DNA of 47,927 nt from a virus (taxonomy: Duplodnaviria > Caudoviricetes). Location: IMG/VR virus record IMGVR_UViG_3300032272_000022, positions 1-47,927 of that record; one strand, written 5' to 3'. Below, in pieces: positions 3,044 through 47,853 of this stretch; within the stretch, counting starts at the first letter, position 1, and each line of letters starts with the position of its first letter. A model generated the notes under the pieces. It searched no databases. It saw nothing but the letters and a program-made list of their open reading frames with translations, and was not told where the DNA came from. The position numbers and the translations under genes were made by a program.

Positions 3044-3793
3044 GTGATATCTAAACCTATCTACATCAAAAGTGGCTACATTGTAGCTATAATCGGCCTC
3101 CTGATTGCAATTGCGATCGTGCAAACAGACTCTGTTACCTTGATTAATAAAGTGTCTGCAACGCACATCGAGGCTGCCGAAGAAAACCAGTCGATAATAT
3201 CCATCGTCGATGCTATTGCTAGTTTGTATCTATTACTGCCTGTTTTCACCGAACCAGAAAAACGAGCCCTCTTGAGCCTCAAAGAAAGAAGAGCCAGCGA
3301 GCAGAAATTTCTTTTGCTACTCAATAGACTACCGGTAGATAAGATTATCGACAAAATGATAGATCTCGATCTAGTCACAACAGAACAACTTTCAAAAATC
3401 GAGCACAAAAGACCTTACATACATCGACTGGCTAAAGTCGCCATGAACGGCATCATGACACCTGAAATACCGGAGATTGCAAAACATGGCAAAGTCCATT
3501 TCAAGTCTGCTCTAGAGGATCCGAGGGCAAATACTTTTGAGGCAACGAACATGGCCATATATGCATTTTTTGATTCAAGTGCGTATCAGGATGAAAATAT
3601 CTTCGTAAAGTGGTATGAGTCTAATCAGGGGAGAATGGCGCTTTTTAAACAGTTTCCTATCACGCAAGAGAATACAAACTATATCTGGATACACAATTCC
3701 GGAGGCTTCACAAAAGGTCAGTATCAAGTTGAAGTTTACCGAATCAACGAAAGTTTCGATTTATTGTCGAAAGGCAATTTCGAGGTTCGGTAA
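3044..3793 (+). CDS. Hypothetical membrane-anchored protein, paralogue of 925-1746
   Basis: N-terminal TM helix and the shared C-terminal beta-rich domain motifs. Confidence 0.75.
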   Translation: MISKPIYIKSGYIVAIIGLLIAIAIVQTDSVTLINKVSATHIEAAEENQSIISIVDAIASLYLLLPVFTEPEKRALLSLKERRASEQKFLLLLNRLPVDKIIDKMIDLDLVTTEQLSKIEHKRPYIHRLAKVAMNGIMTPEIPEIAKHGKVHFKSALEDPRANTFEATNMAIYAFFDSSAYQDENIFVKWYESNQGRMALFKQFPITQENTNYIWIHNSGGFTKGQYQVEVYRINESFDLLSKGNFEVR

Positions 3794-3797
3794 AAGA

Positions 3798-4277
3798 CTA
3801 TATCCAGCGACTATAAAAAAGAACTGAAATAATAAGAAATACAATTCCGACCAAATTACCCAGATCGGCGATGTTAAAAATCCCTGATTGAATAAAATCA
3901 AGATCAATAACAATAAAGTCAGTTACAGCACCCTGCCTGGCCCTTTCCAGTAAATTTGACAACCCTCCCCCCACAACCAGGCCCCAGGCCAGGGCAAATA
4001 TTACGTGACTAAACCCTTTATAGATAAGTAAACCAAATAATCCAGCCAGGAGTACCGCAACGAGTACGATACCAATATACAAAAAGGTTGATGCTTCCAG
4101 GCCGGAGCCAACACCCATCATTAAACCCTTATTTTGATAGAGATCAAAATTTACAATATCCAGAACATTCTTTGAATAAAGATCAGGTCGAAATTTCCAG
4201 AACCAGTTCTTTGTGATTGAATCGACAAGAATACTGAGCAGTAGAAATACGATAAAGGGGTAACGATGACTTTGCAT
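3798..4277 (-). CDS. lspA: Lipoprotein signal peptidase (signal peptidase II)
   Basis: Motifs NKG, GGLSNLLER…GAVTDFI and IFNIAD; multiple TM helices; ATG at 4277 (ORF track start is TTG at 4289). Confidence 0.9.
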   Translation of the reverse strand: MQSHRYPFIVFLLLSILVDSITKNWFWKFRPDLYSKNVLDIVNFDLYQNKGLMMGVGSGLEASTFLYIGIVLVAVLLAGLFGLLIYKGFSHVIFALAWGLVVGGGLSNLLERARQGAVTDFIVIDLDFIQSGIFNIADLGNLVGIVFLIISVLFYSRWI

Positions 4278-4288
4278 AAGACATGACA

Positions 4289-4342
4289 AAAATTGGTCGG
4301 GACGGCAGGATTTGAACCTGCGACCACCTGCCCCCCAGGCAG
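4289..4342. repeat. Left att core (duplicated 3' half of tRNA-Pro)
   Basis: AAAATTGGTCGGGACGGCAGGATTTGAACCTGCGACCACCTGCCCCCCAGGCAG, identical to 47800-47853. Confidence 0.97.
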
Positions 4343-4403: not shown

Positions 4404-4483
4404 AAACCTTCTACCATTTTTTTAATTAACGGCTCGTAAGTCGTTGATTTAATTAAATGGAGAAATGCTGTGGTAGAAGGTTT
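4404..4483. repeat. Putative integrase arm-binding sites (left), inverted pair
   Basis: TGGTAGAAGGTTT at 4404-4416 (reverse) and 4471-4483 (forward); the same 13-mer occurs twice near the right att. Confidence 0.75.
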
Positions 4484-30923: not shown

Positions 30924-31856
30924 ATGAACAAAACCCTGACCAGCCTGCTTCTCTTAGGCAGCCTAATTTCAGCATCAGCCAACGCCGAAGGGTTCAAAGT
31001 AGATGCTTCATACATGGACACCATCAAACACTTTGATATCCTCACTATTGGCAGTCTGGCCGTAGGTGAGACCGGTTTGCTATCAAAATATGACCTTGGT
31101 ACCTGCGTCGATAAACGCAACCTGATGATAGCCTCTTCCGCTATACTCGAGAATTCACCAGATGATTACTTGGTGATTTACAACGTCACCAGAAAGCCCG
31201 GCGATAAAATCACTATTACACTATCCGATAAAGGCAAAAAGCCAAAGATTAAAGACGTGCAAGATGCAATTACGTGGGTATCGCGATCATCACTATGTGA
31301 CGACTACAAAAAATTGGGCGTCCCACTCTTATCGGTCGATGAATTCCTTGGCGCTAAATCATTAAAGCAACTTCTGTCCAACCAAAACACAAACCCGGTA
31401 AAAACCAAAACCCCAAAAACAGCAAACACCGACTTATCAAAAAATTTAGGGCTGCTTAACGAATGGATTACCCGCGAATCAAAATCCCCGATAGACGACA
31501 GCCCTAGAGTCTTCATGACATTAAAAGCAGAATACACTAAGCAGGAACTCACACTGCGTTGCCAGGAGAACAAAACAGAGGCTTATGTCGTCGCCAATGA
31601 ATATTTGGGCAGCAAAAGAAATACAGCCACAGTTCGCTACGGCAACAACAAAGCGAAGGATGAAAAATTCTCTGTTTCAACAGATAAAAAGGCCCTTTTT
31701 TTCAGCAAAGCCATTCCCACTATAAAAACAATGATGAAGCACGAAAGCATGATATTCCGTTACACGGTTTATGATGGTAGTAGCCGTACCGTCACTTTTT
31801 TACTAGGCGATTTAAAAAATCAAATTCAACCGTTAAGGGCGGCTTGCAATTGGTGA
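30924..31856 (+). CDS. Secreted protein with C-terminal VasI/TagO-like domain
   Basis: Signal peptide ASANA; W…SPIDDS…LTLRCQENKTE…STDKKALF…PLRAACNW. Confidence 0.7.
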   Translation: MNKTLTSLLLLGSLISASANAEGFKVDASYMDTIKHFDILTIGSLAVGETGLLSKYDLGTCVDKRNLMIASSAILENSPDDYLVIYNVTRKPGDKITITLSDKGKKPKIKDVQDAITWVSRSSLCDDYKKLGVPLLSVDEFLGAKSLKQLLSNQNTNPVKTKTPKTANTDLSKNLGLLNEWITRESKSPIDDSPRVFMTLKAEYTKQELTLRCQENKTEAYVVANEYLGSKRNTATVRYGNNKAKDEKFSVSTDKKALFFSKAIPTIKTMMKHESMIFRYTVYDGSSRTVTFLLGDLKNQIQPLRAACNW

Positions 31857-32031
31857 GTAGATACCAATCCTGAATAGCAGACGTTGAGATTTGCTTTGGT
31901 TAAGCCCGTTTTCGGCACTGAGCAGACGTTGATATGGCTACTCTTACGTGAGAATATCATGCGGAAATCTTGCTACATAAGTCAATATTGTGTGTGGTAA
32001 ATAACATGTGTTAGCGCGTTGGAGTAGACGA

Positions 32032-32658
32032 ATGGAATTGAGTGAAGTCATAAATCAAGTACTAGCCATCGCCGGCGGAACGTCTGTTGTTATAGTTTCT
32101 TTGGCTGCATTCCTCGGAAAACTCTGGATTGCTAGAGTGCTGGGCAGAGAGAAATTAAAGCACGATATGAAACTCCAAGGCATCCAGGCGCAATTGGATG
32201 CAACTAACCAAAATCTTAAGGCCGAATTGGATAAGGGTCTTCACATCCACAAAGTCCAATTCGATAAAGAATTTGAAATTTATGAGGAGCTTTGGTCAAA
32301 GCTAATTGAGCTCCGAAAAGCGGCACTTTCTTTAAGACCTGAGTTAGATTATATAAATCCAAGCGAATCAGATGAAGAACGAAAAATAAAGCGATTAAAG
32401 AGGTTTGTAGATTCGATAAATGAGTTTACCGATCTGACAGACAAAAATCGTCCGTTCTATTCAGAAATCGTTTTCGAGAGCATGAACAAACTCTGGAAAC
32501 TGGCCCATTCAGAATCAGTTTGGTATAAGCGTCAAGATCCTTATTCCAATGAATATTGGGAAACTGCACAAAAAAACCGAGACGAAATTCTTTCCGAAAT
32601 TGAAAAATGCTGCGAAATCATACGACAGCGAATCGGATCGATAAGAGTATCAGGCTAA
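32032..32658 (+). CDS. Hypothetical TM + coiled-coil protein (cassette-like)
   Basis: GGAG RBS before ATG 32032; preceded by GTTAGCG at 32010. Confidence 0.8.
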   Translation: MELSEVINQVLAIAGGTSVVIVSLAAFLGKLWIARVLGREKLKHDMKLQGIQAQLDATNQNLKAELDKGLHIHKVQFDKEFEIYEELWSKLIELRKAALSLRPELDYINPSESDEERKIKRLKRFVDSINEFTDLTDKNRPFYSEIVFESMNKLWKLAHSESVWYKRQDPYSNEYWETAQKNRDEILSEIEKCCEIIRQRIGSIRVSG

Positions 32659-32852
32659 AACAGGGCCATTAGCGAATGACTATAAAGTGCACAAAGCCGC
32701 TATTCGAACAGATTTTGCGAACGGCTCAAAACGGCACATTGCGGACGTTGGCATATTAGACATTGAGCAAGAAGATCATGAGAAAAAGTTGTAACATAAG
32801 TTAATATTCGTGTTTATCATATAATCAAGTTGTTAGTTGCTAAGGAATTTCA

Positions 32853-33713
32853 GTGCCAACCGTCATAGATGCTTCTGGAAAAAAACTAGATTCAGAATGT
32901 AACCTTAAAGAAATATCTGGCTACGCTGGGTTAGTTCTTGAGTCTATGGGAGGTGGAAGAAATAAGAAATATAACGAAGCTTTTGAACTTGTCCTACAAA
33001 GACTAATCGAGTTTGGTGTCCCGTTTATCCAAGTTTTTGTTGTTTCAACAAACCTAACGAAATTTTATCCTGATATAGAAAATAGGGCCTTATCAGTTAA
33101 TGGTGATAGGTATATAAAAATTGGACTGGAAACAGTAAGAGAAACACGATTAGCCATTGGTCGAGAACAATTAAATCTAAAAGAAGATCAAAGTAAAATT
33201 GGTGGAAACGCAACGAAGAGAATACTCATTCACAATGAAAATATAAGCTTTGACCTTTGGCGAGATATTTATCAAGGAAAAATCGACAGTAAAGGTTTTC
33301 ACGATTTAGTTAGTGAACCGACAAGTAACTACTTCGTATTAGAGAAAAAAGTAAACTCATTAATTAAAACAGAAATAAGTAAGCCTAGAGGGTATTACGA
33401 GCCGAATAAGAAAATGCAACAGGTGCTGGCTTATGAAAGAGACCCACAGGTAAAGGCTTGGGTATTAAAACAATCAAATGGTGTGTGTGAGGCTTGTGAT
33501 TTGCCAGCACCGTTCATAAAGTCAAATGGCGAACCATACTTAGAAGTTCATCACGTTTTACCTTTAGCAGAAGGTGGTAGCGACACAGTAAATAATACAG
33601 TTTCTGTTTGCCCAAACTGTCACAGGATGCTTCACTATAGTCACGATAAAATAACATTACGGAAAGTTGTTGTTGCAAAGATTACAAGGCTTACTAATGA
33701 AAAAAGCAACTAA
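32853..33713 (+). CDS. HNH endonuclease (McrA-like C-terminus), candidate defence protein
   Basis: YERDP…CEAC…YLEVHHVLPLAEGGSD…N…CPNCHR. Confidence 0.9.
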   Translation: MPTVIDASGKKLDSECNLKEISGYAGLVLESMGGGRNKKYNEAFELVLQRLIEFGVPFIQVFVVSTNLTKFYPDIENRALSVNGDRYIKIGLETVRETRLAIGREQLNLKEDQSKIGGNATKRILIHNENISFDLWRDIYQGKIDSKGFHDLVSEPTSNYFVLEKKVNSLIKTEISKPRGYYEPNKKMQQVLAYERDPQVKAWVLKQSNGVCEACDLPAPFIKSNGEPYLEVHHVLPLAEGGSDTVNNTVSVCPNCHRMLHYSHDKITLRKVVVAKITRLTNEKSN

Positions 33714-33751
33714 CAAGGTGTTCAATGCGATGGCTTTCAGCCGCGCGTTAA
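33705..33751 (+). repeat. Truncated attC site of the HNH cassette
   Basis: AACTAAC-AAGGT-GTT[C]AATGCG[A]TGGC…GCCGCGCGTTAA; R' end is missing and replaced by a palindrome. Confidence 0.7.
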
Positions 33752-33963
33752 TGACCGGTAAGGGCACTAACCGGCTATTCAGAAATTTGATTTGAAGGTC
33801 GGCAAACGGCACATTGCGGTCATTGAGTAAACTATCCTTTCGTGAGAATATTTTGCGAAAATCTTGTAACATAAGTCAATATTTTTGCGTGCCATATAAG
33901 TCAGTATTCATGTGTGTCGCATAATCAAGCTGCCAATAGCAATCTAAGGTTGAAGTTTTATTT

Positions 33964-34860
33964 ATGGAAGCTATATTCAAATTTATCTATGAGTTTCAGA
34001 ATGAGAATTTATACGCTCTGCTAAACTCACAATTTTTTTCTACTATCTTGGGAGCCTTAGGAGGAGCATTCGCAGGCGCGTTTGCCGCACACAAAATTGC
34101 TTTAAATACAAAGAAAAGAGAAGAAATAGAAAAAGAAATTAGGGCTGTAAATGTAGCGATTTCATCAGCTTTTCTTATTTGTAACTCAATACTTAGCTTA
34201 AAGAATCAGCATTTAGAACAACTTTACAAAGGTTATATGGGGGGTCGAAAGGTTTTTGAGAATGCTTTGAAGAGTACACCGGATGTGGCCCTACAATTCG
34301 ATATGGACCTAAGGACTCTTGATATGCCTCACATTCCAATTGAGCTTCTTGAAATGAATGGCTATGAAAAAATAACTCTTAGAGGACGCCCTCTAGCACT
34401 CATTTCTACTCTTTCTACCTCGATTGATACAATGCGTTCTAGCCTAAATCGTCGAAACAAGGTCATAGAAAATTTCAAAAGCTTATTGCCAACTATTTCT
34501 CAAAAGGAAAAGCTTGATTACTACTTTGGTTTTCCGTTGACTGATGGAAGTGTAGATCAAGAATACCTGGATACTACGGAAGGTTTATATCAATATGCAG
34601 ATGATGTGATTTTCTTCAGTTCATTACTTTGTGAAGATTTAAGAAAGCATGGAAATAAGCTTAGGAATATCTATAAAAAACTACACGGTAAGAAAATTGA
34701 CAAAATTTCAGGTTTTCACTTTGACACGCCTCAGGCAAAAGCTATCTGGCCAAATCAAGATAATTATAAAGACTGGTTAAAGATGTTTTTTGAACAAGAA
34801 AAAAAGAAAAGTTGGTATGAACGTATTTTTGCTACTAAAAAGGAAAATCCACATGGATAG
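33964..34860 (+). CDS. Hypothetical N-terminal TM protein (cassette-like)
   Basis: 298 aa, AT-rich, GALGGAFAGAFAA TM segment. Confidence 0.8.
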   Translation: MEAIFKFIYEFQNENLYALLNSQFFSTILGALGGAFAGAFAAHKIALNTKKREEIEKEIRAVNVAISSAFLICNSILSLKNQHLEQLYKGYMGGRKVFENALKSTPDVALQFDMDLRTLDMPHIPIELLEMNGYEKITLRGRPLALISTLSTSIDTMRSSLNRRNKVIENFKSLLPTISQKEKLDYYFGFPLTDGSVDQEYLDTTEGLYQYADDVIFFSSLLCEDLRKHGNKLRNIYKKLHGKKIDKISGFHFDTPQAKAIWPNQDNYKDWLKMFFEQEKKKSWYERIFATKKENPHG

Positions 34861-35034
34861 ATTTAAGCTACTCCACGATATTACGCAGCTAAAAATTGCC
34901 AGTGGTTTTCGACGTTAAAGTCCGCAAAGGGCACTTAGCAGAAGCCCGTCCCTAATAATTGAATGTCCGCTTTGGACTAAACAAATTGATCTTTTCTTTC
35001 AGCTTATTCTTGAGTATAGGCGCCCTTATTGCGC

Positions 35035-35520
35035 CTACTTCCTACGAAACTCCCAAGGTGGGATAGCAGGCGCAGCCCAAAGCCCTATTGTCTTGGCCCT
35101 GGCCTCGTTCTCTGCGGAATCGTATAAAACCCTGTCTAACCTGGACTGATCTTTTTGGTAGTGCTTATAGTGCCAAGCATAGCCCTGTTTGACCTGTAGC
35201 AGATTGATATCCCGACCATCCATTATCAGCTTACCGATGATTCGGCTGTATCGATCGCGCTTACTGTATTCAACCTCAACATTCTTACTAGCCACTAAGC
35301 CAGATAGGTTTTGTTTAGATTTCTGACCGAATGCCTGCTTCTTCTCGGGTGCGTCGATCCCGCCTAGCCTAATTTTATGCTTTGTCTTTGTTTGATCGAG
35401 GACATGGACGGTATCCCCATCGGTAACTTTGACAACCCTACAAGGGCAATCTAAAAAGTCTGCACCCGCATTGAAAGGCTGCAAGCCGAAAAAGAGTAAT
35501 AAAACGCATGATAGTCGCAT
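35035..35520 (-). CDS. Thermonuclease (SNase) family secreted nuclease
   Basis: DGDT, IRLGGIDAPE, DRYSR and PPWEFR motifs; signal peptide; start approximate. Confidence 0.92.
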   Translation of the reverse strand: MRLSCVLLLFFGLQPFNAGADFLDCPCRVVKVTDGDTVHVLDQTKTKHKIRLGGIDAPEKKQAFGQKSKQNLSGLVASKNVEVEYSKRDRYSRIIGKLIMDGRDINLLQVKQGYAWHYKHYQKDQSRLDRVLYDSAENEARAKTIGLWAAPAIPPWEFRRK

Positions 35521-35652
35521 TTGTAAAAACCAAATCAAAAGGGCAAATATAGTATTGCACAAACTACCGAAATCCCTATCCGTTTCTCAAGAAACCAAAC
35601 CCTTCTTTTTGCCTTCATCCCACCCCCCCTATAAAAATAATTTCAAAAACAT

Positions 35653-37106: not shown

Positions 37107-38647
37107 ACGCCATCCCCAACCAACCAGAAATGGAAGTAATCACCCACCTACCCCTGGCCAAAATCCAGCCCGACCCAAACCAGCCACGCCGGTTATTCGA
37201 CGCCGACGAACTCGCACAGTTCGCCCAGTTCATCCGCGCCGATGGTTTAATTCCGCCGATCCTGGTACGCCATGTTGATGATGATCAGCACCTCATCATC
37301 CACGGTGAGCGTCGCTATCGTGCTAGCAAAATGGCAGGTAGAGAGACCATCCCCGCGATAATCGACATTCGCCAACAAGGCCCGATCGACCGGTTAATCG
37401 AACAGGTTGCCGACAACCTGCAAAGCGAGCTCAAACCGATGGAGATCGCGCAGTTTTATGAAGACCTGAACAGCATCCACAATGTCCGCAATGCCGACAT
37501 TCCCAAACTGTTGAAAGCGCGCGGACTCAAAGAACCCAGTCGCGAGCAGGTTAGCGCATACCGTCGATTGCTCAAGCTACCCAAATGGGCGCAAGACTTA
37601 ATCAACGCGGGCACCCTCACCCCAAGCCATGGCAAATATATTCTCAGTGCCCACGGACTGGATGACGTCATGGCCGACATCCGTACTGATGTCGAAATGG
37701 ATCTTGTTGCCGAAGGCCGAGCGCCCACAGTCATCGACCTGGAAGACACAATCTCCCAGGCATTTAACAATCACTATATCGACATACACTACCCATCGAA
37801 CCAGGAGCCTCGCTACTTCGACCCGGCAACCTGCAAAGACTGCAAAACCTGCAAAAAACTCACCACCCGAAACAATGGCGAAGAAGTTTTTTGTCTGAAT
37901 GACGATTGTTTTGAGCAAAAGCAAACAGTAGCCAAAGCACAGCGCGAAGCGGGATGGGATATCAAAGAGCCCAAAAAAGCACCATCGCCCACATCACCAG
38001 AAGCCGACAACCCCGAAAGCTACGAAGGCCACGACGCTGTTGAGTCCGAGCAACAACCAGAACCAAAAGCAACGTCATTGCAAGCCGAAGCGCTGGCAGC
38101 GGGCAGAGTCGAAAAAACACAGCAATATCTCGATAACTGGCTCAGGTATCAGCTAGCGCGGCACCTGGCCGAAGACCAGGAAAGCATCTTTGCCATACTG
38201 CTATGGGCAGCAGCTGGCGCACCTGGCAACGCCAACGGCTACATGACTGGCGGCGGACTCTCACACCCTGATATCAGCCATCAGGATGGTTACAAACATG
38301 GCATTAATCTCACGCTAAAAAAACACATCGATCACGGTGAGCTATCACTCGAAATCGTCAACAAAGCACTGGCCAGCATGACCCGAATTAACCTGCGACG
38401 GCTGGCACACCATTGTGAGATAAAACTCGAAGGTAACTACAAAATAGACCTCGACTATTTCCGGTTAAAAACCAAAGACGAGCTGATCAACGCAACACCA
38501 ACGTCAGTGCGCGACAACTGGATGGACGCCGACGCCTGGCGAACATTCTGCAAACAGCCCTTGCCAAAATTGCAGGAACAAATATTCGTCCACGCCGATG
38601 ATTGGGGTGTGCCAGACGACCTGCTTGAATATTACGAGGCGCAATAA
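37103..38647 (+). CDS. ParB/Spo0J-like protein
   Basis: PDPNQPRR…LIPPILVR…IIHGERRYRA; downstream HTH and Cys cluster. Confidence 0.9.
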   Translation: MNAIPNQPEMEVITHLPLAKIQPDPNQPRRLFDADELAQFAQFIRADGLIPPILVRHVDDDQHLIIHGERRYRASKMAGRETIPAIIDIRQQGPIDRLIEQVADNLQSELKPMEIAQFYEDLNSIHNVRNADIPKLLKARGLKEPSREQVSAYRRLLKLPKWAQDLINAGTLTPSHGKYILSAHGLDDVMADIRTDVEMDLVAEGRAPTVIDLEDTISQAFNNHYIDIHYPSNQEPRYFDPATCKDCKTCKKLTTRNNGEEVFCLNDDCFEQKQTVAKAQREAGWDIKEPKKAPSPTSPEADNPESYEGHDAVESEQQPEPKATSLQAEALAAGRVEKTQQYLDNWLRYQLARHLAEDQESIFAILLWAAAGAPGNANGYMTGGGLSHPDISHQDGYKHGINLTLKKHIDHGELSLEIVNKALASMTRINLRRLAHHCEIKLEGNYKIDLDYFRLKTKDELINATPTSVRDNWMDADAWRTFCKQPLPKLQEQIFVHADDWGVPDDLLEYYEAQ

Positions 38648-38649
38648 TC

Positions 38650-38970
38650 ATGACCATCGCATCAAAAATACTTGCCCTGCTCAAAACGCATCCAGCCCTG
38701 ACTATCGCCGAAATCCAAGAGACAGACGGATACAACTACTGCATAAGCAGCACGCGCAACGCAGTCCAACGCCTCACGCGAGAGGGATTAATCGACCTGG
38801 CCTTTTTCGTAGGTAAAGAAAAATCGCACAAACTCACCAGCAGAGGCTTCACCGAAATCAAACCCGAGACGAACCAAAAAATAAAGAGTGAATGGCTCGA
38901 AATACAAGTGCAACACAAGGCAATCAATCAGTTTCTTTATACAAAACATGACGCCGTAGCGCGTTTGTGA
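38650..38970 (+). CDS. Winged-helix DNA-binding protein
   Basis: ILALLK…LTIAEI…STRNAVQRLTREGLI. Confidence 0.65.
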   Translation: MTIASKILALLKTHPALTIAEIQETDGYNYCISSTRNAVQRLTREGLIDLAFFVGKEKSHKLTSRGFTEIKPETNQKIKSEWLEIQVQHKAINQFLYTKHDAVARL

Positions 38971-39007
38971 CATTGGAGATTAAACCCATGCAAAACAAAA
39001 CCACCCA

Positions 39008-39202
39008 ATGATAAAAGCAGGGCTAGCAAATCACCTGAGCCCACAACGCCCACGCCTGCGCGTGTATGAGGATGGCACTTGCAGGTATGAATTCACAATC
39101 GAAGGCTGGATTATTTTTGAGGATATAGCTAAGGCTTATGCGTTTTTGAAAGAGCAGATTAATCCCTTGCGCAGATCACCTGCTTTCAATCGGCACTGGT
39201 AA
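39008..39202 (+). CDS. Hypothetical protein
   Basis: TAATG coupling to the methylase gene. Confidence 0.5.
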   Translation: MIKAGLANHLSPQRPRLRVYEDGTCRYEFTIEGWIIFEDIAKAYAFLKEQINPLRRSPAFNRHW

Positions 39203-40824
39203 TGGCAATGCTACGTCATCAAATTAGGGACCGGGAACTGATTATCGATAACTTCGCCGGTGGCGGTGGCGCATCGCTTGGCATCGAGCAAGCATTGGGC
39301 CGACCGGTTGATATCGCTATCAATCACGACGCTGAAGCGGTAGCCACGCACACAGCCAACCACCCTGACAGCAAGCATTACTGTGAGGATGTCTGGCAGA
39401 TAAACCCACGCAACGCCTGCAAAGGCCGACCTGTCGGGCTTGCCTGGTTTAGCCCAGATTGCAAGCACCACTCAAAAGCCAAAGGCGGCAAACCCGTTAG
39501 CAAAAAGATTCGCGGGCTAGCCTGGGTCGTCATCAAATGGGCCAAACAGGCTCGCCCCAGAATCATCATGCTGGAAAACGTCGAAGAGTTCGCCGACTGG
39601 GGCCCGCTCAATATTGCGGTTGACGCCAAAACAGGTAGAGCCATTTACGAACCAGACGGCACCCCAAAACTATTCCCCTGCCCGCTACGCAAAGGCCAAA
39701 CCTTTCAATACTGGAAATCCCAACTCGAACGCCAGGGATATATCGTCGATTGGAAAATACTGCGCGCCAGCGACCACGGCGCGCCCACCATCCGCAAACG
39801 CCTGTTCTTAATCGCCCGGTGCGACGGTCGTCCCATCGTCTGGCCCAGGCCCACGCATGGCGACCCCAAAAGTGACGCAGTCAAACAAGGCAAGTTACTA
39901 CCCTGGCGCACAGCAGCTGAGTGCATCGACTGGACACTGCCAACACCATCGATATTCCTGAGCAAAGAAGAAGGCAAAAAAGCAAACGTGCGCCGACCAC
40001 TGGCACAAAACACCATGAAGCGAATTGCCAAAGGGATAAAACGCTTTGTTATTGATGCTGCGGAGCCGTTTATTGTTACCTGTAACCATAGTGGTGAAAG
40101 TTTCCGTGGACAGGGTTTAACCAAGCCGATGAACACAGTAGTCGGGAGCCGCGATGCTCACGGGCTGATAATCCCCAGCATCACCGAATGCGCCAACGCA
40201 TCCAGCCAACGCAACATGCCGGCCGATGAACCACTACGCACCATTTGCGCCCAAACCAAAGGCGGACATTTCGCCCTGGTCAGCGCCTTTCTCGCCAAAC
40301 ACTATGGCGGCAACTACGACGGCGCTGGACATGGACTTAACGAACAGACCGGCACCATCACAGCGAAGGATCATCATTCGCTGATCACATCCCACATGGT
40401 CAAGCTACGCGGCACCTGCAAAGACGGCCAACCAATCGACGAACCCGCCCCAACCATCACAGCAGGTGGTAATCACATCGGTGAGGTTCGCGCCTTTCTT
40501 ATCAAATACTATGGCACGGGTGGACAAGATCAAAGCTGTCAAGATCCAGTACACACCATCCCATCCCGCGAACGCTTCGGCCTCATCACTGTATCCGGAC
40601 AAGACTACATCATCGCCGACATCGGCATGCGCATGCTCACCCCGCGCGAGCTATATCGTGCCCAAAGCTTCCCCGACAGCTACATCATAGACCCGCAAAT
40701 CAACGGCAAGAAGTTAAGCAAAGCAGCACAGGTACGCATGGTCGGGAACTCAGTCGTGCCATGCCTGGCAAAAGCACTGGTTGAAGCCAATGTTCAATTT
40801 GATAGAAAACGTCACGTTGCTTAG
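39202..40824 (+). CDS. DNA (cytosine-5) methyltransferase, orphan phage type
   Basis: FAGGGG, SPDC, ENV, RKRLF and GNSV motifs; internal PxxTI repeats. Confidence 0.95.
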   Translation: MAMLRHQIRDRELIIDNFAGGGGASLGIEQALGRPVDIAINHDAEAVATHTANHPDSKHYCEDVWQINPRNACKGRPVGLAWFSPDCKHHSKAKGGKPVSKKIRGLAWVVIKWAKQARPRIIMLENVEEFADWGPLNIAVDAKTGRAIYEPDGTPKLFPCPLRKGQTFQYWKSQLERQGYIVDWKILRASDHGAPTIRKRLFLIARCDGRPIVWPRPTHGDPKSDAVKQGKLLPWRTAAECIDWTLPTPSIFLSKEEGKKANVRRPLAQNTMKRIAKGIKRFVIDAAEPFIVTCNHSGESFRGQGLTKPMNTVVGSRDAHGLIIPSITECANASSQRNMPADEPLRTICAQTKGGHFALVSAFLAKHYGGNYDGAGHGLNEQTGTITAKDHHSLITSHMVKLRGTCKDGQPIDEPAPTITAGGNHIGEVRAFLIKYYGTGGQDQSCQDPVHTIPSRERFGLITVSGQDYIIADIGMRMLTPRELYRAQSFPDSYIIDPQINGKKLSKAAQVRMVGNSVVPCLAKALVEANVQFDRKRHVA

Positions 40825-40834
40825 GAGACAATAA

Positions 40835-41053
40835 ATGATGTCCCACCCATCCACAAAACCAGCGATCCACGGCTTCCAGCCAACAGATCCCATGGTCAGC
40901 AAAATCGATCACCTGGCTGAAGTTTGCCAACTGTGGAAAGAAAGGCGTCAAAAACACATGCAAACGAACAGTCTGCGCGCCAGTGTCGTCGTGCTGTGTG
41001 AAGAAATTGCTGATTTGGCTCGGGCGCATCCTGAGCCTTCGAGGAAACCATAA
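40835..41053 (+). CDS. Hypothetical protein
   Basis: AGGAG RBS; coupled to the next gene. Confidence 0.55.
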   Translation: MMSHPSTKPAIHGFQPTDPMVSKIDHLAEVCQLWKERRQKHMQTNSLRASVVVLCEEIADLARAHPEPSRKP

Positions 41054-41340
41054 TGCATCACTTCCACCAACTCGAATGCGCCATCGAATCAATCATTCAG
41101 ATTGCAGAAAACGTGAGTCCACGCCCACTCACACTGCATGACAACGAGTCAATCGCTGGACTCGTCAAAAGCAGCGACAACAACCCGACTGTCGGTCATG
41201 TACCGCATCCTTTTGGGGGATGTATGGGCGTCACGACTAGTCCTAGAGAAAATTACCTTGGGGAACAATCAGTCACCATTGCTTTGAAGCGCGAACCCCA
41301 CGTGGAGCGGGTGGCTGGTTATATTGGGATACAGATATGA
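41053..41340 (+). CDS. Hypothetical protein
   Basis: TAATG and ATGA couplings. Confidence 0.55.
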
Positions 41341-41831
41341 GTCGAGGCATCAACAAAGCAATCATCGTCGGCACACTAGGCCACGATCCATCCCTGCGAT
41401 CAATGCCCAACGGCAATGCCGTGGTTAACTTCTCCGTTGCCACCAACGAAAGCTGGAAAGACAAGCAAACCGACCAGCAGCACGAACACACCGAATGGCA
41501 CAACATCGTCATCTTCGGCAAGCTCGCCGAAATCGCCAAACAATACCTGGTCAAAGGCTCGCAAGCCTACTTCGAAGGCAAGCTAAAAACCGAAAAATGG
41601 CAGGACAGAACCGGCAACGATCGCTACACCACCAAAATCATTGTGTCCGACATGCAGATGCTAGGGCGCAAATCCGAAGGCGCAGCGCACGACAACACCG
41701 ACCATCGACCAAAACCAGAACCCGGCAAATCAACTGCGCACGGGCAAGCGTATCGCGCGGCCACGGAAGGTAGCGCGATACCAGACAACAGCGCGCCTGT
41801 TGATGATGGTTTTGATGATATTCCTTTTTGA
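41337..41831 (+). CDS. ssb: Single-stranded DNA-binding protein
   Basis: [12 protein letters not shown]…TEWH…; acidic tip DDIPF. Confidence 0.97.
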
Positions 41832-42454
41832 TGATGCAAAAAATCATGAACCCATTATTCATCCCACTAAAAACAGAGTTCTTCGATGCCTTTGCATCAG
41901 GCGAAAAAACCGAAGAACTCAGAGCCTACGGCCCGCGATGGAATGAGCAAACATGTGCCATCGGGCGCAACGTCACACTCAGCAAAGGCTATGGCAAACA
42001 AAACCGACTAACAGGAAAAATATGGAAGTTCAAAAAACAACATGCGACGCTTTTTGGCAGCACATACAAAGCGGCAATCAAGTCCGTATTTGGGACACTC
42101 GACATCGAAATAGCCTGCATATCAATTGCTGATTTAGAACCGTTAACGGACATTAGAATGCCTGAAAGAATCCAACGCCGACGCACCAAAGGCTGGCGCA
42201 TGCCCGACAACACTATCTATGTCGGCAGGGGCAGCAAATGGGGTAACCATTTCACAGTCGAGCAATACGGGCGCGAAAAAGCCATTGAAAAGTTCCGGAG
42301 CTATATCGGTCATCCTAATAGCCCACACCGATTTGAACCGGAAGAAATCGAACAGCTACGCGGTAAAAATCTGGCGTGCTGGTGCTCACTCGACCATGCA
42401 TGTCATGCCGACGTATTGCTAGAGATAGCAAACAATAACCAGGTGCAACCATGA
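41828..42454 (+). CDS. ASCH/PUA-like domain fused to a DUF4326-like domain
   Basis: [14 protein letters not shown], then [12 protein letters not shown]…[10 protein letters not shown]…CHADVL. Confidence 0.7.
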
Positions 42455-42801
42455 CCCTATCCTGCTCATGCGACTTCGAAGACTGCGCATTTTTTTACGA
42501 CTCGCCGACCGACTATGAAACGCTCGACACTATCCGCCGAGGCCGGTGTTTAAGCTGCAAAGACCAGATTGATGTCGGTGCAATAACAACAGCGTTCCCA
42601 AGCTGGCGACCACCCAACTCGGATATCGAAGAACGAATCCATGGCGAAGATGGCGAAGTCCCAATGGCAACCAAATACATGTGCGAAGAATGCAGCGATC
42701 TCTTCTTCTCACTCACCGAACTAGGCTACTGCATCACGATCGGCACGCACACCATGAAAGAACTGGTTGCGATGCATAACAACCAGGAGGTCGACCAATG
42801 A
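42451..42801 (+). CDS. Hypothetical Zn-finger-like protein
   Basis: CxxC…CxxC pairs. Confidence 0.6.
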   Translation: MTLSCSCDFEDCAFFYDSPTDYETLDTIRRGRCLSCKDQIDVGAITTAFPSWRPPNSDIEERIHGEDGEVPMATKYMCEECSDLFFSLTELGYCITIGTHTMKELVAMHNNQEVDQ

Positions 42802-42923
42802 TCATTCATAAACTTTGGAAAAAACGAAGCAATGGTGGCTGTACAGTTACTTACTGTGAAGGATGGTTTCTGTTTGGAATTATCCCTTTATATATCAAAA
42901 AAACTGTTGTGGGAGATTAAATA

Positions 42924-43232
42924 ATGGCTGATCAATCCGCAATAAGAAAATACCGCCCATCAAACGGCACCGAAGGTGAAATATTCACGGCCGTTCACTG
43001 CTTTCAATGCGAACGCGATAATTATGATCTTGAAACAGGCGAAGGTGAACCCTGCGAAATACTTGGGCGCACAATGGTCCACTCGCGCGACGATGACGAA
43101 TACCCCAGCGAATGGACATTTGACCAGGAAGGCAACCCAACCTGCACAGCATTCATCACAAAAGACGAACCAGTACCGATCCGATGCACCAGGACGAATG
43201 ACATGTTTGGAGAATTCGATGGTCGACAATAA
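42924..43232 (+). CDS. Hypothetical Cys-containing phage protein
   Basis: PSNGTEG…CxxC…C…PxC; GGGAG RBS. Confidence 0.65.
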   Translation: MADQSAIRKYRPSNGTEGEIFTAVHCFQCERDNYDLETGEGEPCEILGRTMVHSRDDDEYPSEWTFDQEGNPTCTAFITKDEPVPIRCTRTNDMFGEFDGRQ

Positions 43233-43752
43233 AAGCAAAGCCGAAGCAATCATGAATTTTGTAGACTCGATGGTAGGCGCATTTGATGCGGGATACGTCG
43301 ACAGAAATCATTGCACCCTATCTGAGATTCACACAGTCGCAAAGCATCATGTTAAAGATACGTATGGAGTGGATCAGCCAAATGCTGTGGAAAAATACGG
43401 CGAAAAAATGGCTAAAGATATTGGGCTTAATTCCCCGCGTCCAGAAAACTATCCGCATGCGAGAACCTGCCGCCGCGTTGTTTGTGCCGCAATTCGATCA
43501 AGTGACGGCGACGTATTAATCGGCATCCGGCACTACAGCAAAGACATGCACCAGCAAATCAAAGCACGACACGACGGTAAAAAATTTTTACGCCGACACG
43601 ATCCAGACCAGGGCTTTGTCGATCAATACGGCGTGTACATGACCCGTGAAGAAGCCTTTGAGGTAGCCAAAGCTGCCAACCAGGTAATATTTGTAGAGCA
43701 CTGTGGCAAGGGGCTTGACGGAATGAAGCTGTACAGCGAAGGGCTGTATTGA
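43219..43752 (+). CDS. Hypothetical phage protein
   Basis: GGAG RBS before ATG 43219; VVCAAIR…RH…QGFVDQYG…LYSEGLY. Confidence 0.7.
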   Translation: MVDNKSKAEAIMNFVDSMVGAFDAGYVDRNHCTLSEIHTVAKHHVKDTYGVDQPNAVEKYGEKMAKDIGLNSPRPENYPHARTCRRVVCAAIRSSDGDVLIGIRHYSKDMHQQIKARHDGKKFLRRHDPDQGFVDQYGVYMTREEAFEVAKAANQVIFVEHCGKGLDGMKLYSEGLY

Positions 43753-43809
43753 GCATAACCCCAAGCTTTGTGGAGAGCGAAGCGATTCCAAAACAGCGTA
43801 TTGTTATGT
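43753..43809 (-). repeat. attC site 1 (57 bp)
   Basis: Minus strand: ACATAAC-AATAC-GCT[G]TTTTGGA…TCCACAAAGC-TTGGG-GTTATGC; near-identical to 45694-45751. Confidence 0.85.
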
Positions 43810-43835
43810 TTTTATTAATTTTAAACAGGTGAAAT

Positions 43836-44051
43836 ATGGAGCTTACAAACGAGCATATAGAAATATTAAAACACACTGCTAAGAACAGGTACTTTTGCGG
43901 CGACAGTAAAGAAATGCAAGAACTTTGTAATTTTAAAATGATGGTTTACGTGGGAAAAAAACCATTCGTGCCAGACCCATATTTTGAATTAATGAATGAC
44001 GGTAAAACATTTCTCGAAGCCCTTAACGAGCTTGAATGTGCCGAAACATAA
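43836..44051 (+). CDS. Cassette A hypothetical protein (winged-helix-like)
   Basis: AGGTG RBS; stop TAA lies in ACATAAC. Confidence 0.7.
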   Translation: MELTNEHIEILKHTAKNRYFCGDSKEMQELCNFKMMVYVGKKPFVPDPYFELMNDGKTFLEALNELECAET

Positions 44052-44172
44052 CCCTGGCTATTTGCTGCCACCGAAACGAAAACGAGGACTTAAATTATGA
44101 CCGATAAAACTGAGACCACTGCCCCCAAATCAATTACAGGTTTAGGTGGTCAGAAACATAGCGTTGTTAAGT
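44046..44172 (-). repeat. attC site 2 (127 bp) containing RBS and ATG of 44097-44288
   Basis: Arms GCTATTTGCTGCCACCGAAAC / GTTTAGGTGGTCAGAAACATAGC with two bulged bases. Confidence 0.85.
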
Positions 44173-44288
44173 GCGTTATTTGTAACGACACTGGCTGGAA
44201 CCACGGCGCTCAGTGCCACCCCAGCAAAGCCCATCCCAAAGGGTGGAGGACTATTAAATGTGATTGCGCGGCAGGTAAAAAATCATGA
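44097..44288 (+). CDS. Cassette B small Zn-ribbon-like protein
   Basis: GAGGA RBS; CVICNDTG…CDC. Confidence 0.6.
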   Translation: MTDKTETTAPKSITGLGGQKHSVVKCVICNDTGWNHGAQCHPSKAHPKGWRTIKCDCAAGKKS

Positions 44289-44470
44289 TAACGATAACTT
44301 TTCACGGGTGGATAATTCCACTGATAATAACTGTGTGCGGGTTTAGTGCAGCATATTTGTTGACACGCAATGCTGGTGGTATAGCTGGGCCATTAGCGCC
44401 GGTTATAGGTTACGGCGTGGCGCTGGTTTTAGCTTTAATAGTGTGGATGATTTATGGATTAGCCGCTTAA
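44285..44470 (+). CDS. Cassette B small two-TM membrane protein
   Basis: ATGA coupling; two hydrophobic helices; stop lies in GCTTAAC. Confidence 0.65.
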   Translation: MITITFHGWIIPLIITVCGFSAAYLLTRNAGGIAGPLAPVIGYGVALVLALIVWMIYGLAA

Positions 44471-44583
44471 CCCTAAATTTTGCAGTGCATAAACGAACTT
44501 AAATAGGCGATGAAATGAGCAAGAACACTGAACAAAAAACCGAGCACCCTGGCAAAGTGTCTGCCAACAATGATTTGTTATGC
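44465..44583 (-). repeat. attC site 3 (119 bp) containing the start of 44515-44943
   Basis: Minus strand: GCATAAC-AAATC-ATT[G]TTG[G]CAG…CTGCAAAAT-TTAGG-GTTAAGC. Confidence 0.8.
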
Positions 44584-44943
44584 GCTTATTATCCTTTGCT
44601 ACATCATTCGCTGGGAATCACCGACCCTGAACAATTTGATAGTTACAGAAATTATTTTGAGGCCAGCGGCGGACACAGTGATTTACCAGGATTATTAAAA
44701 CTCTGCGAAGCTGGGTTAATGGTAGAAGGAAATTCCCCTAGTTTTTGCCATGAAGATTCCCGCACTTTTTATGTAACCCAAGAAGGGCGGGCAATGGCTT
44801 TTGAGACTAGGCCGAAACCGCCGAAACTGACAAGAGGTCAGCGACGATACAGAGCATATTTAAAATCAGAGGCAGACGAAAGTTTTGGTGACTGGTTGAA
44901 AGACCCATATTGGGATGACTACAGGCGTCAGCTAGGCGCATAA
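44515..44943 (+). CDS. Cassette C hypothetical phage protein
   Basis: HSLG…YRNYF…LTRGQRRYRAYL…FGDWL; stop lies in GCATAAC. Confidence 0.75.
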   Translation: MSKNTEQKTEHPGKVSANNDLLCAYYPLLHHSLGITDPEQFDSYRNYFEASGGHSDLPGLLKLCEAGLMVEGNSPSFCHEDSRTFYVTQEGRAMAFETRPKPPKLTRGQRRYRAYLKSEADESFGDWLKDPYWDDYRRQLGA

Positions 44944-45060
44944 CCCAAAGCTATGCGGCGCATACGACTAACTTAACGAGACTTTGAACCATGAACGAAG
45001 ACCAGAACCAGAAACAAGCACTGAACGCAAAGCGTCCGATTCATGAGCGCTTTGTTAGCT
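44938..45060 (-). repeat. attC site 4 (123 bp) containing the start of 44991-45290
   Basis: Minus strand: AGCTAAC-AAAGC-GCT[C]ATG…CATAGC-TTTGG-GTTATGC. Confidence 0.8.
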
Positions 45061-45290
45061 GTGGGGAATACGATAAAAAAACTTTTGACAAAATCAATAA
45101 AGTTATAAAAACAAAGATTGCAGAACTTAAAGACGATTACGAAAAACTAAAAGCAGTCGATTCTCTTATCGGTGAAGATGCCACGAAGGAGAAAAAACAC
45201 GACTTATTGAATTCTGTATTTGTGCTACAAGAGGTCCAATCAGAATCTATGGATATTTTATTTACACCCGTGAAAAGCGTGAGCAGCTAA
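44991..45290 (+). CDS. Cassette D hypothetical protein
   Basis: 99 aa; stop lies in AGCTAAC. Confidence 0.65.
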   Translation: MNEDQNQKQALNAKRPIHERFVSCGEYDKKTFDKINKVIKTKIAELKDDYEKLKAVDSLIGEDATKEKKHDLLNSVFVLQEVQSESMDILFTPVKSVSS

Positions 45291-45412
45291 CCCCCGCGTT
45301 AATTTGACGCCGAAACGAAACTGAGGATTTAACAAAATGGCAGAAATTGAAGAGTACCTAAAAGACAAAAAGGCCGCTGAAAAAGGCGGTCAAATTGAAC
45401 CTGTTGTTATGT
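45285..45412 (-). repeat. attC site 5 (128 bp) containing RBS and ATG of 45337-45699
   Basis: Minus strand: ACATAAC-AACAG-GTT[C]AATTTGAC[C]GCC…GGCGTCAAATTAAC-GCGGGG-GTTAGCT. Confidence 0.9.
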
Positions 45413-45699
45413 GGCGTGGTGGTGACGGGATGACTAAGCCAGTAAAGGTTTCTTGCCCTGATGGGTTATGGCCCGAATACGATTCCGACGGGGTTCAAAT
45501 ATTTGAAAACACTCACTTCAAAACCGAAGATCAAGCATGGAAAAGTATCGAAGAAAGTGTTCTAGCTGGGATATCGTTAGCCGGTCGTGAGGTCGAGTTT
45601 AGGGAGAAGCAACTGGCAGAATCGAAGGATTGGGCGGCACAGGCTGCAAAAGATTTTGCTTTGTTTCGAACAAATTTGAGAAATAAGAACGACACATAA
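45337..45699 (+). CDS. Cassette E hypothetical protein
   Basis: GAGGA RBS; stop lies in ACATAAC. Confidence 0.7.
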   Translation: MAEIEEYLKDKKAAEKGGQIEPVVMWRGGDGMTKPVKVSCPDGLWPEYDSDGVQIFENTHFKTEDQAWKSIEESVLAGISLAGREVEFREKQLAESKDWAAQAAKDFALFRTNLRNKNDT

Positions 45700-45751
45700 C
45701 CCCATAGCTTTGTGGAGAGCGAAGCGATTCCAAAACAGCGTATTGTTATGC
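45694..45751 (-). repeat. attC site 6 (58 bp)
   Basis: Core AGCTTTGTGGAGAGCGAAGCGATTCCAAAACAGCGTATTGTTATG identical to site 1. Confidence 0.85.
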
Positions 45752-45767
45752 GCAGGAGTGATTAACG

Positions 45768-45989
45768 ATGCCAGATCGTGATAAAGATTTAGAACAGCTA
45801 CAGGCCATGAATCCTACACAATGGCGCTATGTGAATTGGCTTGAGGAAGGTGGAGGGGAAGTGCAGCGGGTGCATGATGTTTATGTCTTGTTTGAAATTC
45901 CACGGTACGGAGGGAAGCCTCAATATGTTGGGACATATCACCGAGATGATCTACATAAGCTAATAGACATGGCGTACTCATGGACGTGA
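45768..45989 (+). CDS. Cassette F hypothetical protein
   Basis: AGGAG RBS; LFEIPRYGGKP…AYSWT. Confidence 0.7.
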   Translation: MPDRDKDLEQLQAMNPTQWRYVNWLEEGGGEVQRVHDVYVLFEIPRYGGKPQYVGTYHRDDLHKLIDMAYSWT

Positions 45990-45990
45990 C

Positions 45991-46010
45991 GCATAACACT
46001 AGATTATCAA
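45991..46010 (-). other. Putative attI-like primary insertion site of the array
   Basis: Minus strand TGATAAT-CTAGT-GTTATGC: simple-site geometry and no attC hairpin. Confidence 0.55.
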
Positions 46011-46035
46011 GACCTTGCAAGGTACCGGTTAAAAA

Positions 46036-46341
46036 ATGTACAGAAAAACAGCTAAATCATTAAAGTACGAAAACATGCGCAAAGCCAAGGAACGTAAGCG
46101 CCTGGAGTCACCTGCGCCTGAACCAATCATCGATCTACCCGATCTGCGCAAGACCATCGTAATAACAAATTTCGATTTTGGTGAAGAAGTGCATAGGTTC
46201 GAGCTAATGCAAACCGGGCGCATCGATCAATATAAGGTGTTGGTAGATGGAGAACTATGGAAGCACCGCATCGGACTATCCGGGATTCTGGCAGGTGTCA
46301 GAAAATCCATGCCTCCAGTGAGATCAATCTATGCGAATTAA
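46036..46341 (+). CDS. Hypothetical protein
   Basis: 101-aa ORF in the early operon. Confidence 0.65.
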   Translation: MYRKTAKSLKYENMRKAKERKRLESPAPEPIIDLPDLRKTIVITNFDFGEEVHRFELMQTGRIDQYKVLVDGELWKHRIGLSGILAGVRKSMPPVRSIYAN

Positions 46342-46493: not shown

Positions 46494-46709
46494 ATGTTTT
46501 TATCGCCCACCGATATCGCAGAACTAACCAACGCAAAGCGCAAAGATCGACAGATCCAGGCGTTGCAAGACATGCGAATTCGGTTTGCAAAGGCGATCGA
46601 CGGCAGGCCAAAAGTTTTACAAGCAGAGGTTGAACGGGTTATGCTCGGCGGGCCGATCGTCGATCGAGCGACAGAACAGCAACCCAGGTTCGACAAAATA
46701 CATGGCTAA
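46494..46709 (+). CDS. Putative excisionase (DUF4224-like)
   Basis: MFLSPTDIAELT…QIQAL…DGRPKV; overlaps the integrase start. Confidence 0.8.
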   Translation: MFLSPTDIAELTNAKRKDRQIQALQDMRIRFAKAIDGRPKVLQAEVERVMLGGPIVDRATEQQPRFDKIHG

Positions 46710-47715
46710 ACGCGATCTTCCGCCACGGATGTACAAAAAATACCACGTTTATTATTACGTGGTGCGCGTCGATGGTAAAAAAAAATGGATCAGACTATCG
46801 AACGACTACCAGGAAGCGCTGTTTAAATACGCCGAGCTCGAAGGCAACCCGCACAACACCGGCTTTATTAAAGCGGCAATTGACAAATACCGGGTCGAAA
46901 TCCTGCCCAGCAAAGCACCCAAAACTAGACGCGAGCGCCAATATTTGCTCGACAGACTCAAGCGAGTCTTCGGCGAAATGCGCTATGAAGCGCTACAACC
47001 AAAGCATCTACAAGAATACCTGCAAACCCGAACCGACAAAAAAGGCAAAACCGTCCCGGTAGCAGCGAACCGAGAAATCAAGCTACTATCAAGCATATTC
47101 CGACATTGCATCGTGTGGGGTTTCCACGACTCAAACCCCTGCGAACACGTTTTCTATCACCCTGAGAAAGGCCGTGACAGGTACATCACCGACGCAGAAC
47201 TGGACCTCTTAAGAGATAACGCAGACGAAATGACCAGGGCGATAATCGATATCGCATACTGCACAGGTATGCGCAAAAGCGACATCCTGCAAATCAAAAG
47301 CGCCGATGCTGCACCCGAAATGCTCTATAACAAGCAGAACAAGACCGGCAAACAGCAACTATTTTTGTACAAACCAAAGCTAAAAGCAGCCATCGAGTCC
47401 GCGAAGAAGCTTAAAAAAACGCGACGCACCAAAGACAACGCCCACCCGTTGACGCCCTATTTGTTTATCAACTCCAAAGGTGGCGTCATATCCGAGACCG
47501 GATTCAACTCGACATGGCGACGATTAAAAACAAAAACCGGTTTAGTCGGCGACAGGAATTTAACGTTCCACGATATACGCGCCAAAGCACTCACAGACGC
47601 GAAAAACAAACACGGACTTGAGTACGCCCAGGCACTCGGCGGGCACGAAAACGCAAGCCAAACCGAGCACTACATCAAGTCAAAATCCACTGATAAAATT
47701 GACTCGCTAGAGTGA
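46702..47715 (+). CDS. int: Phage tyrosine integrase
   Basis: Catalytic R (GMRKSD), HxxR (FHDIR), H (GGHEN) and Y (TEHY); adjacent to att. Confidence 0.95.
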   Translation: MAKRDLPPRMYKKYHVYYYVVRVDGKKKWIRLSNDYQEALFKYAELEGNPHNTGFIKAAIDKYRVEILPSKAPKTRRERQYLLDRLKRVFGEMRYEALQPKHLQEYLQTRTDKKGKTVPVAANREIKLLSSIFRHCIVWGFHDSNPCEHVFYHPEKGRDRYITDAELDLLRDNADEMTRAIIDIAYCTGMRKSDILQIKSADAAPEMLYNKQNKTGKQQLFLYKPKLKAAIESAKKLKKTRRTKDNAHPLTPYLFINSKGGVISETGFNSTWRRLKTKTGLVGDRNLTFHDIRAKALTDAKNKHGLEYAQALGGHENASQTEHYIKSKSTDKIDSLE

Positions 47716-47718
47716 TAG

Positions 47719-47751
47719 TGGTAGAAGGTTTATATATTTGGTAGAAGGTTT
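47719..47751 (+). repeat. Putative integrase arm-binding sites (right), direct pair
   Basis: TGGTAGAAGGTTT at 47719-47731 and 47739-47751. Confidence 0.75.
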
Positions 47752-47799: not shown

Positions 47800-47853
47800 A
47801 AAATTGGTCGGGACGGCAGGATTTGAACCTGCGACCACCTGCCCCCCAGGCAG
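47800..47853. repeat. Right att core
   Basis: Identical to 4289-4342. Confidence 0.97.

Follow-up and report, generated by a model that had tools for sequence, protein, structure and literature searches.

We analyzed a 47,927-nucleotide stretch of viral DNA (Duplodnaviria; Caudoviricetes; positions 1 to 47,927 of the IMG/VR virus record IMGVR_UViG_3300032272_000022), here called the window, and found six attC-type recombination sites within approximately 2 kb (43753-45751). We consider it likely that these sites form an integron-type array in a prophage without an integron integrase, that the genes of this array are inverted, each cassette consisting of an attC followed by its own gene, and that the loops of the four long sites supply the ribosome-binding site, the start codon, and the first 20 to 23 amino acids of the protein encoded downstream. 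The window is a lambda-like prophage with genes for terminase, portal, protease, major head protein, tape measure protein, repressor, and an O-like replication protein. The array region (43753-46341) is located at the end of the early operon, immediately 5′ of xis and the phage integrase gene, and contains the following features, listed together with the right end of the prophage.

43753-43809, plus strand: attC A, short, 57 nt, bottom-strand geometry on the plus strand; first element of the array
43836-44051, plus strand: cassette 1 gene, 71 aa, with its own SD-like motif; the stop is the TAA of the next box
44046-44172, plus strand: attC B, long, 127 nt; loop with a GAGG motif and ATG 44097; predicted 23-codon leader, phase 0
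44097-44288, plus strand: cassette 2 gene a, 63 aa, Cys-rich; ATGA overlap with gene b
44285-44470, plus strand: cassette 2 gene b, 61 aa, hydrophobic; the next box holds the stop
44465-44583, plus strand: attC C, long, 119 nt; ATG 44515 with a weak SD; predicted 20-codon leader, phase 2
44515-44943, plus strand: cassette 3 gene (gene C), 142 aa; phrog_13561/phrog_21796 match from residue 19-24
44938-45060, plus strand: attC D, long, 123 nt, with an imperfect arm, identified by eye; ATG 44991 with a weak SD; predicted 21-codon leader, phase 0
44991-45290, plus strand: cassette 4 gene (gene D), 99 aa; no homologue found
45285-45412, plus strand: attC E, long, 128 nt; ATG 45337 preceded by a GAGG motif; predicted 23-codon leader, phase 0
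45337-45699, plus strand: cassette 5 gene (gene E), 120 aa; further in-frame ATGs inside the box and 8 codons past it
45694-45751, plus strand: attC F, short, 58 nt; identity to A of 96% across 50 nt
45768-45989, plus strand: cassette 6 gene, 73 aa, with its own AGGAG motif
45991-46009, minus strand: terminal half-site of box, 5-nt spacer, and box; putative attI, facing back into the array
46016-46023, plus strand: TGCAAGGT motif, unchanged across all eight aligned loci
46036-46341, plus strand: 101-aa gene, family unannotated ('MYR'); also linked with a terminal site in seven further loci
46494-47715, plus strand: prophage excisionase and phage integrase, the latter distinct from integron integrases
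47800-47853, no strand assigned: prophage attachment core, 54 bp, in tRNA-Pro; second copy at 4289-4342

All six sites carry the inverted R boxes RYYYAAC ... GTTRRRY and have the form box, spacer, arm, loop, arm, spacer, box. The unpaired spacer of 5 to 6 nt, the paired L box, and the extrahelical bases on one arm were recognized by a structure script in A, B, C, E, and F and by eye in D, which carries an extra bulge of 2 nt and was missed by the script. When positions 43701-46000 were base-shuffled 200 times, the script scored 0.02 sites on average and at most one, compared to five in the real sequence. The site lengths of 57 to 128 nt are inside the attC range of 57 to 141 nt. The first extrahelical base is a G in E and, read by eye, in D, whereas A, B, C, and F have a C instead of the usual G. 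The boxes, spacers, L boxes, extrahelical bases on one arm, and lengths support the attC type of the six sites, in agreement with the earlier note.

In predicted circle junctions, the full DNA hairpin was the minimum-energy form, or not more than 0.1 kcal/mol away from it, for all six sites. Folding energies of the circle form favored the plus strand in three cases and the minus strand in two and were about equal in one, showing no consistent preference for the plus strand. The long sites folded without constraints were no better than shuffled sequences (z from -0.80 to +1.00), and pairing of the DNA boxes in the array context was rare for C, D, and E (P <0.1), given which these three sites could be decayed. 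The ends of the cassette gene bodies are complementary over 6 to 9 nt and the two boxes of each site over only 4 to 6 nt; complementary cassette ends were dropped as a special feature, as the bacterial array L124 has them likewise (4 to 11 nt) and they represent an ordinary cassette signature.

The earlier note had assumed canonical polarity, which is most likely reversed in view of the arm geometry, the orientation of the bacterial site family, and the ends of shared cassettes. In all five scored sites the extra bases are located on the plus-strand arm opposite AAC, and the bottom-type scores on the plus strand ranged from 7.9 to 10.5, compared to 1.5 to 6.9 for the top type. The accessible text of Nivina et al. 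2016 (PMC5027507) assigns recombination to the strand with extrahelical bases on the arm opposite the cleaved AAC. As the geometry in the window matches this description, the plus (coding) strand is likely to be the recombining one. A pattern for the short-site family yielded 14 loci in bacterial genomes, including one in Thalassomonas (L124) with a true IntI. In the 10 loci with scored sites, the genes were found on the opposite strand in eight cases and on the same strand in none, with two ties. A looser pattern yielded 64 viral loci; after removal of duplicates and with the window counted, 50 had scored sites, and 25 of these were inverted, 12 were canonical, and 13 were ties in an orientation test that is noisy in GC-rich DNA. 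Gene orientation was called by a stop-at-box test, since calls based on the longest ORF had been abandoned as too noisy. Exact window-like patterns gave either no loci in viral contigs or loci without a bottom-type site, which were dropped.

The boundaries of the mobile unit became apparent from cassettes shared between inverted arrays of other phages, all with short sites and none of them a cassette of the window. A cassette of 610 nt (94% identity) is common to L010 and L062/L064, the latter two being one sequence, and a cassette of 651 nt (92 to 94%) is common to L017, L026, and L057. Both extend from TAAC to TAAC and have different neighbors in the different arrays, and the same picture was obtained by eye for L011 and L055. 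Because the shared cassettes start and stop at the TAAC of the left box, the mobile unit appears to be an attC plus the gene downstream of it, with the crossover most likely at the left TAAC box. In the window, the stop codon of five of the six cassettes is a TAA inside the next left box. In a canonical cassette the gene is located 5′ of its own attC and reads away from attI; the window genes read toward the attI-like site on the strand with bottom geometry. A crossover at the left box implies that a leader would move with its own gene and that shuffling would lend none to the next gene.

Only one cassette gene body, that of gene C, could be traced, and its relatives mark it as an ordinary and widespread phage gene. 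The comparison covered four GenBank phages and 31 of 37 viral loci, all but the six weakest partial matches. In none of these 35 loci is an attC present near the non-cassette homologue of gene C, and these homologues lack the leader, as anticipated by the earlier note, which had proposed the absence of leaders from such homologues as a check. Most of them have a Met a few residues 5′ of the conserved domain, which begins at residue 24-28 of gene C. The homologue in L129 (64% identical) uses a native start by ATGA overlap and has no site. Of the closer relatives, P0001 (87%) has a D-like leader and P0002 (77%) an E-like leader, and a third one, P0011, has a short unrelated N-terminus, all three judged from the protein sequence. 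A single-protein search of viral contigs with gene C gave no match. Homologue searches with genes D and E returned the window's own protein as the only match; for gene E there was no match in GenBank phages, and all Atlas leads were below 0.9.

Leaders of the window type were also found on other genes. Three low-depth contigs of X1, a DNA sequencing run possibly made from the same sample as the window, have B-, C-, and E-type leaders that run on in frame into other genes; the joints to these bodies lie at the right box or within approximately 8 nt of it. The C-type leader shows compensating -1/+1 indels and is followed by a WQPIET-type motif, which we take to be a common phage protein start. 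The occurrence of leader families on unrelated genes argues for gene capture rather than gene birth. The suggestion of the earlier note that the sites offer a route to gene birth or capture is thus retained for the capture of existing phage genes, gene C being one, and not for birth from arbitrary DNA.

The variety of leaders would also fit an array with canonical polarity, in which a G|TT crossover at the right box allows an attC to lend its start and leader to the downstream cassette. Such a reading could account for the four different N-termini of the gene C body (window, P0001, P0002, and P0011) and for the position of the leader-body joints in run X1; top strands recombine 1000- to 10000-fold less often according to the accessible part of PMC5027507, so that rare leader swaps are possible. 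We nevertheless regard canonical polarity as unlikely, since it is opposed by the arm geometry, the bacterial orientation, the left-box cassette boundaries, and both array ends. Moreover, two phases coexist, as the box is crossed in phase 0 by B, D, and E and in phase 2 by C (3:1) and in viral leaders 11 times in phase 0 and 7 times in phase 2, and free exchange of leaders would often cause a frameshift. Reuse of one attC family across many genes is the norm in chromosomal integrons and is visible in L124.

If, as we prefer, each attC precedes and accompanies its own gene, the proposal of the earlier note that an attC serves as a portable start for any downstream DNA loses its basis, because recombination most likely takes place at the left box and two phases would be incompatible with free exchange. 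A counterpoint to co-travel of leader and gene is that close homologues of gene C (77 to 87% identical) have different leaders, whereas strict co-travel predicts otherwise. With crossover at the left box, the reuse of leaders is best explained by the formation of cassettes or by rare wrong-strand events. Leader-bearing attC families would then join different phage genes as cassettes arise or are remodeled, and not during routine shuffling.

Upstream of site A, no GTTATG partner was found in the 5.7 kb from 38001 to 43750. The half-site at the downstream end consists, on the minus strand, of a box, 5 nt, and a GTT box and has no hairpin partner. Twenty-one such array ends without a hairpin partner, hand-picked by eye and thus not a basis for a frequency, have a loose TAAC-N5-NTAGAC in common. 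An integron integrase gene pointing away from the array directly follows the half-site in the viral loci L029, L045, and L051. The L029 integrase matched TIGR02249 with 371.8 bits (cutoff, 265), and those of L045 and L051 are 43% and 48% identical to it. Because IntI directly follows the half-site in these three loci, the half-site occupies the position of attI, and by analogy we infer that 45991-46009 is attI-like. Apart from the reversed genes, the three loci have the layout of a normal integron. They represent viral contigs with complete integrons and inverted cassette genes, and in L051 a phage integrase resembling that of the window comes after intI. Within the window no intI lies beside the array, two IntI queries gave no tblastn match at E 0.01, and the window integrase did not match TIGR02249.

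Homologues of the 101-aa protein (35 to 50% identity) are encoded behind the terminal site in L028, L138, L139, and L150, and also in L142, where the gene is clipped by the contig end. These five loci had been fetched by attC patterns alone and not by the protein. Genome searches with the 101-aa protein gave 1/400, 2/401 (one new), and 1/128 (none new), and the loci L152 and L153 found by protein search have a terminal site upstream as well as decayed attC-like hairpins recognized by eye. In the window and seven further loci, the downstream end of the inverted array combines the half-site, TGCAAGGT, and the gene of approximately 100 aa. The family comprises 255 clusters at 50% identity. The protein was modeled as a small helix-sheet-helix structure (pLDDT 95). 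It matched no Pfam or PHROG family and no GenBank phage or plasmid, and its fold gave no match when a shallow model was compared with PDB and BFVD and the pLDDT-95 model with BFVD. It may be a functional partner of the array or just a conserved neighbor of xis and int.

How the array might operate can be outlined as follows. An integron integrase provided in trans, encoded by the host or by some other element, would cleave the plus strand in its folded form at AA|C in the left box, and the attI-like site at the right end would serve as the entry point for cassettes. Their transcription might occur by read-through from the phage early operon toward xis and int; promoter and terminator scans gave results at chance level. 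As the site sits 5′ of the gene, its loop can become a translation start, and an A-rich loop might evolve in this way and replace the native N-terminus of the gene. A more far-reaching version holds that the phages run a mirror-image integron platform, in which the inverted attI and the 101-aa protein recruit or steer the host integrase and attC leaders are grafted onto the 5′ ends of resident genes. We consider this version improbable; if true, phages would be a working factory for new cassettes in which the cassette-making step is exposed.

With respect to translation of the leaders, the ATGs at 44097, 44515, 44991, and 45337 and the peptide ends HSVVKC, NDLLCA, ERFVSC, and EPVVMW described by the earlier note are all present in the sequence. 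Its estimate that 21 to 24 codons read through arm and box corresponds to 23 (B), 20 (C), 21 (D), and 23 (E) codons counted ahead of the G of the right box. The loop sequences that it quoted as related are present too. Their relatedness was borne out for B and E, whose similarity exceeded that of 1000/1000 shuffles, and not for the other five pairs, which were matched by 15 to 318 of 1000 shuffles; at the leader level, C and D are related as well (0/1000 shuffles as good). A clear GAGG/AGGA motif precedes the ATG only in B and E, and the motifs in C and D are weak. As stated by the earlier note, the two short sites are followed by genes with separate translation signals, an SD-like motif and ATG downstream of the site. 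The right-box ATGs of these short sites open mini-ORFs of 8 codons (43805-43831) and 5 codons (45747-45764), both of which stop just 5′ of the cassette gene start, and translational coupling like that of ORF-11 is possible.

A long-site pattern retrieved 17 viral loci, and 37 distinct long sites were kept across all viral loci. By the filter used, 19 of the 37 have an SD motif plus ATG in the loop and 18 do not, compared to 0/4 long bacterial sites. From 18 of the 19 positives the frame continues into a body of at least 45 codons, compared to a chance expectation of 8.0 with three phases or 12 with two phases; the 19 are not independent, because there are related leader families among them. 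The informative sites with a single open phase were in the matching frame in 12/12 cases. The loop ATGs are therefore probably the translation starts of the leaders, as far as can be judged from the sequence. RNA folding with flanks gave box pairing probabilities of at most 0.12 and an SD region approximately 45% unpaired, which gives no support to the suggested coupling of translation to the upstream stop by an RNA hairpin. Near-identical leader sites occur at 2498-2599 in both L144 and L148 (oriented) in phases 0 and 2, with a 1-nt shift near the ATG. In L015, L017, L026, L057, L062, and L064 a short attC has a GTG in frame into a gene of approximately 205 aa, and short sites may thus code for leaders as well.

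It is quite unlikely, in our estimation, that the sites are attC-derived but the working starts lie at or past the right box, or that the long sites are decayed relics that are open by chance. The former would be compatible with gene E, which has ATGs inside the box and 8 codons beyond it and might start at or just past the box, and with gene C, whose near-box alternatives are TTGs only, one of them in the box; the weak SD motifs of C and D would fit as well, and the poor folding of the long sites agrees with decay. On the other hand, gene B has no in-frame ATG, GTG, or TTG past the box, and the first such start in gene D is codon 51. The beginning of the conserved domain of gene C leaves little room for a downstream start, and the viral frame bias of 18/19 is also opposed to it. 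Passive pickup of a piece of a host chromosomal integron by the prophage, for which phages with captured integron segments described by Qi et al. (PMC9892861, accessible text) and the close resemblance of the short sites A and F to bacterial sites such as L117 could be cited, is highly improbable, since the window genes are inverted and 0/10 bacterial loci are, the only traceable gene belongs to a phage family, and unrelated phages have the terminal site and the 101-aa gene in the same position.

The preferred reading, an array of inverted cassettes with attC-coded N-termini, shares individual properties with known systems. The accessible text of Qi et al. 2023 (PMC9892861) reports 17 phage CALINs and recombination of phage attC sites by IntI1. 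A CALIN has at least two attC sites close together and no intI, and the window, with six sites in 2 kb and IntI absent, resembles the phage CALINs in this respect; inverted genes, attC start codons, and a terminal inverted attI-like site, which we propose for the window, are not mentioned in the accessible text. Canonical attC sites, as described in the available part of PMC5027507, share with the window the R boxes, 5-nt spacers, L box, extrahelical bases, variable loop, and a length of 57 to 141 nt, but there the gene is located 5′ of attC and the non-coding strand recombines, whereas in the window attC precedes the gene and the coding strand has the recombining geometry. ORF-11, ORF-17, and ORF-18 in attI1 and short ORFs in attC aid cassette translation (PMC8876359 and PMC11511950, accessible portions), and as in the window a recombination site bears an SD motif and ATG that aid expression of the cassette gene. 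As far as these portions describe them, those ORFs are separate, act by termination-reinitiation, or are located in the fixed attI, while in the window the attC peptide forms the predicted N-terminus of the protein. The synthetic coding attC sites of Nivina et al. 2020 (PMC7439510, accessible text) likewise code for protein and still recombine; they were engineered, whereas the window is a natural case at the 5′ end of a gene. The attG sites are short double-stranded GWT sequences located outside integrons at which IntI can insert cassettes (bioRxiv 10.1101/2022.09.11.507474, accessible part). The terminal half-site could be derived from an attG-type site, from which, as described there, it differs in being conserved across phages, anchoring whole arrays, and holding the place of attI beside intI.

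In the literature searched, which covered few subscription papers, no published account of an inverted layout with attC-coded starts was found, and mirror-image phage cassettes with attC-coded N-termini apparently represent an unpublished variant of the integron. The layout would overturn the view that recombination involves the non-coding strand and that attC is located 3′ of the gene, and it provides a natural sequence that likely doubles as recombination substrate and N-terminal code. The origin of gene cassettes is a long-standing open question of integron biology. Here the joining step is traceable, because a cassette gene can be compared with the non-cassette form in L129 and with versions carrying other attC leaders. 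The reading predicts that annotation gives phage cassettes wrong boundaries, and it would explain spurious N-termini common to unrelated small phage proteins.

Searches covering the array and its surroundings gave few further matches. No Rfam family except tRNA passed, comparison of the array DNA with GenBank phages gave no meaningful match, and no excision joints were found in run X1. The gene preceding the array (43219-43752) encodes a phrog_839 domain fused to an N-terminal part of approximately 80 aa. An alternative 66-aa frame over gene B (44146-44346) has a hydrophobic, signal-like start and is probably incidental. In L077, the small genes in the neighborhood of the gene C homologue are flanked by two kinds of direct repeats (2750-2940, 3385-3450, and 3700-3950); no attC is present there, and the repeats are possibly another shuffling signal. 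A low-GC accessory block of the window (30924-35562) contains an HNH nuclease gene, a thermonuclease-like gene, and a VasI-like domain. The TGGTAGAAGGTT repeats at 4405-4482 and 47719-47750 mark both prophage ends and are likely arm-type integrase sites.
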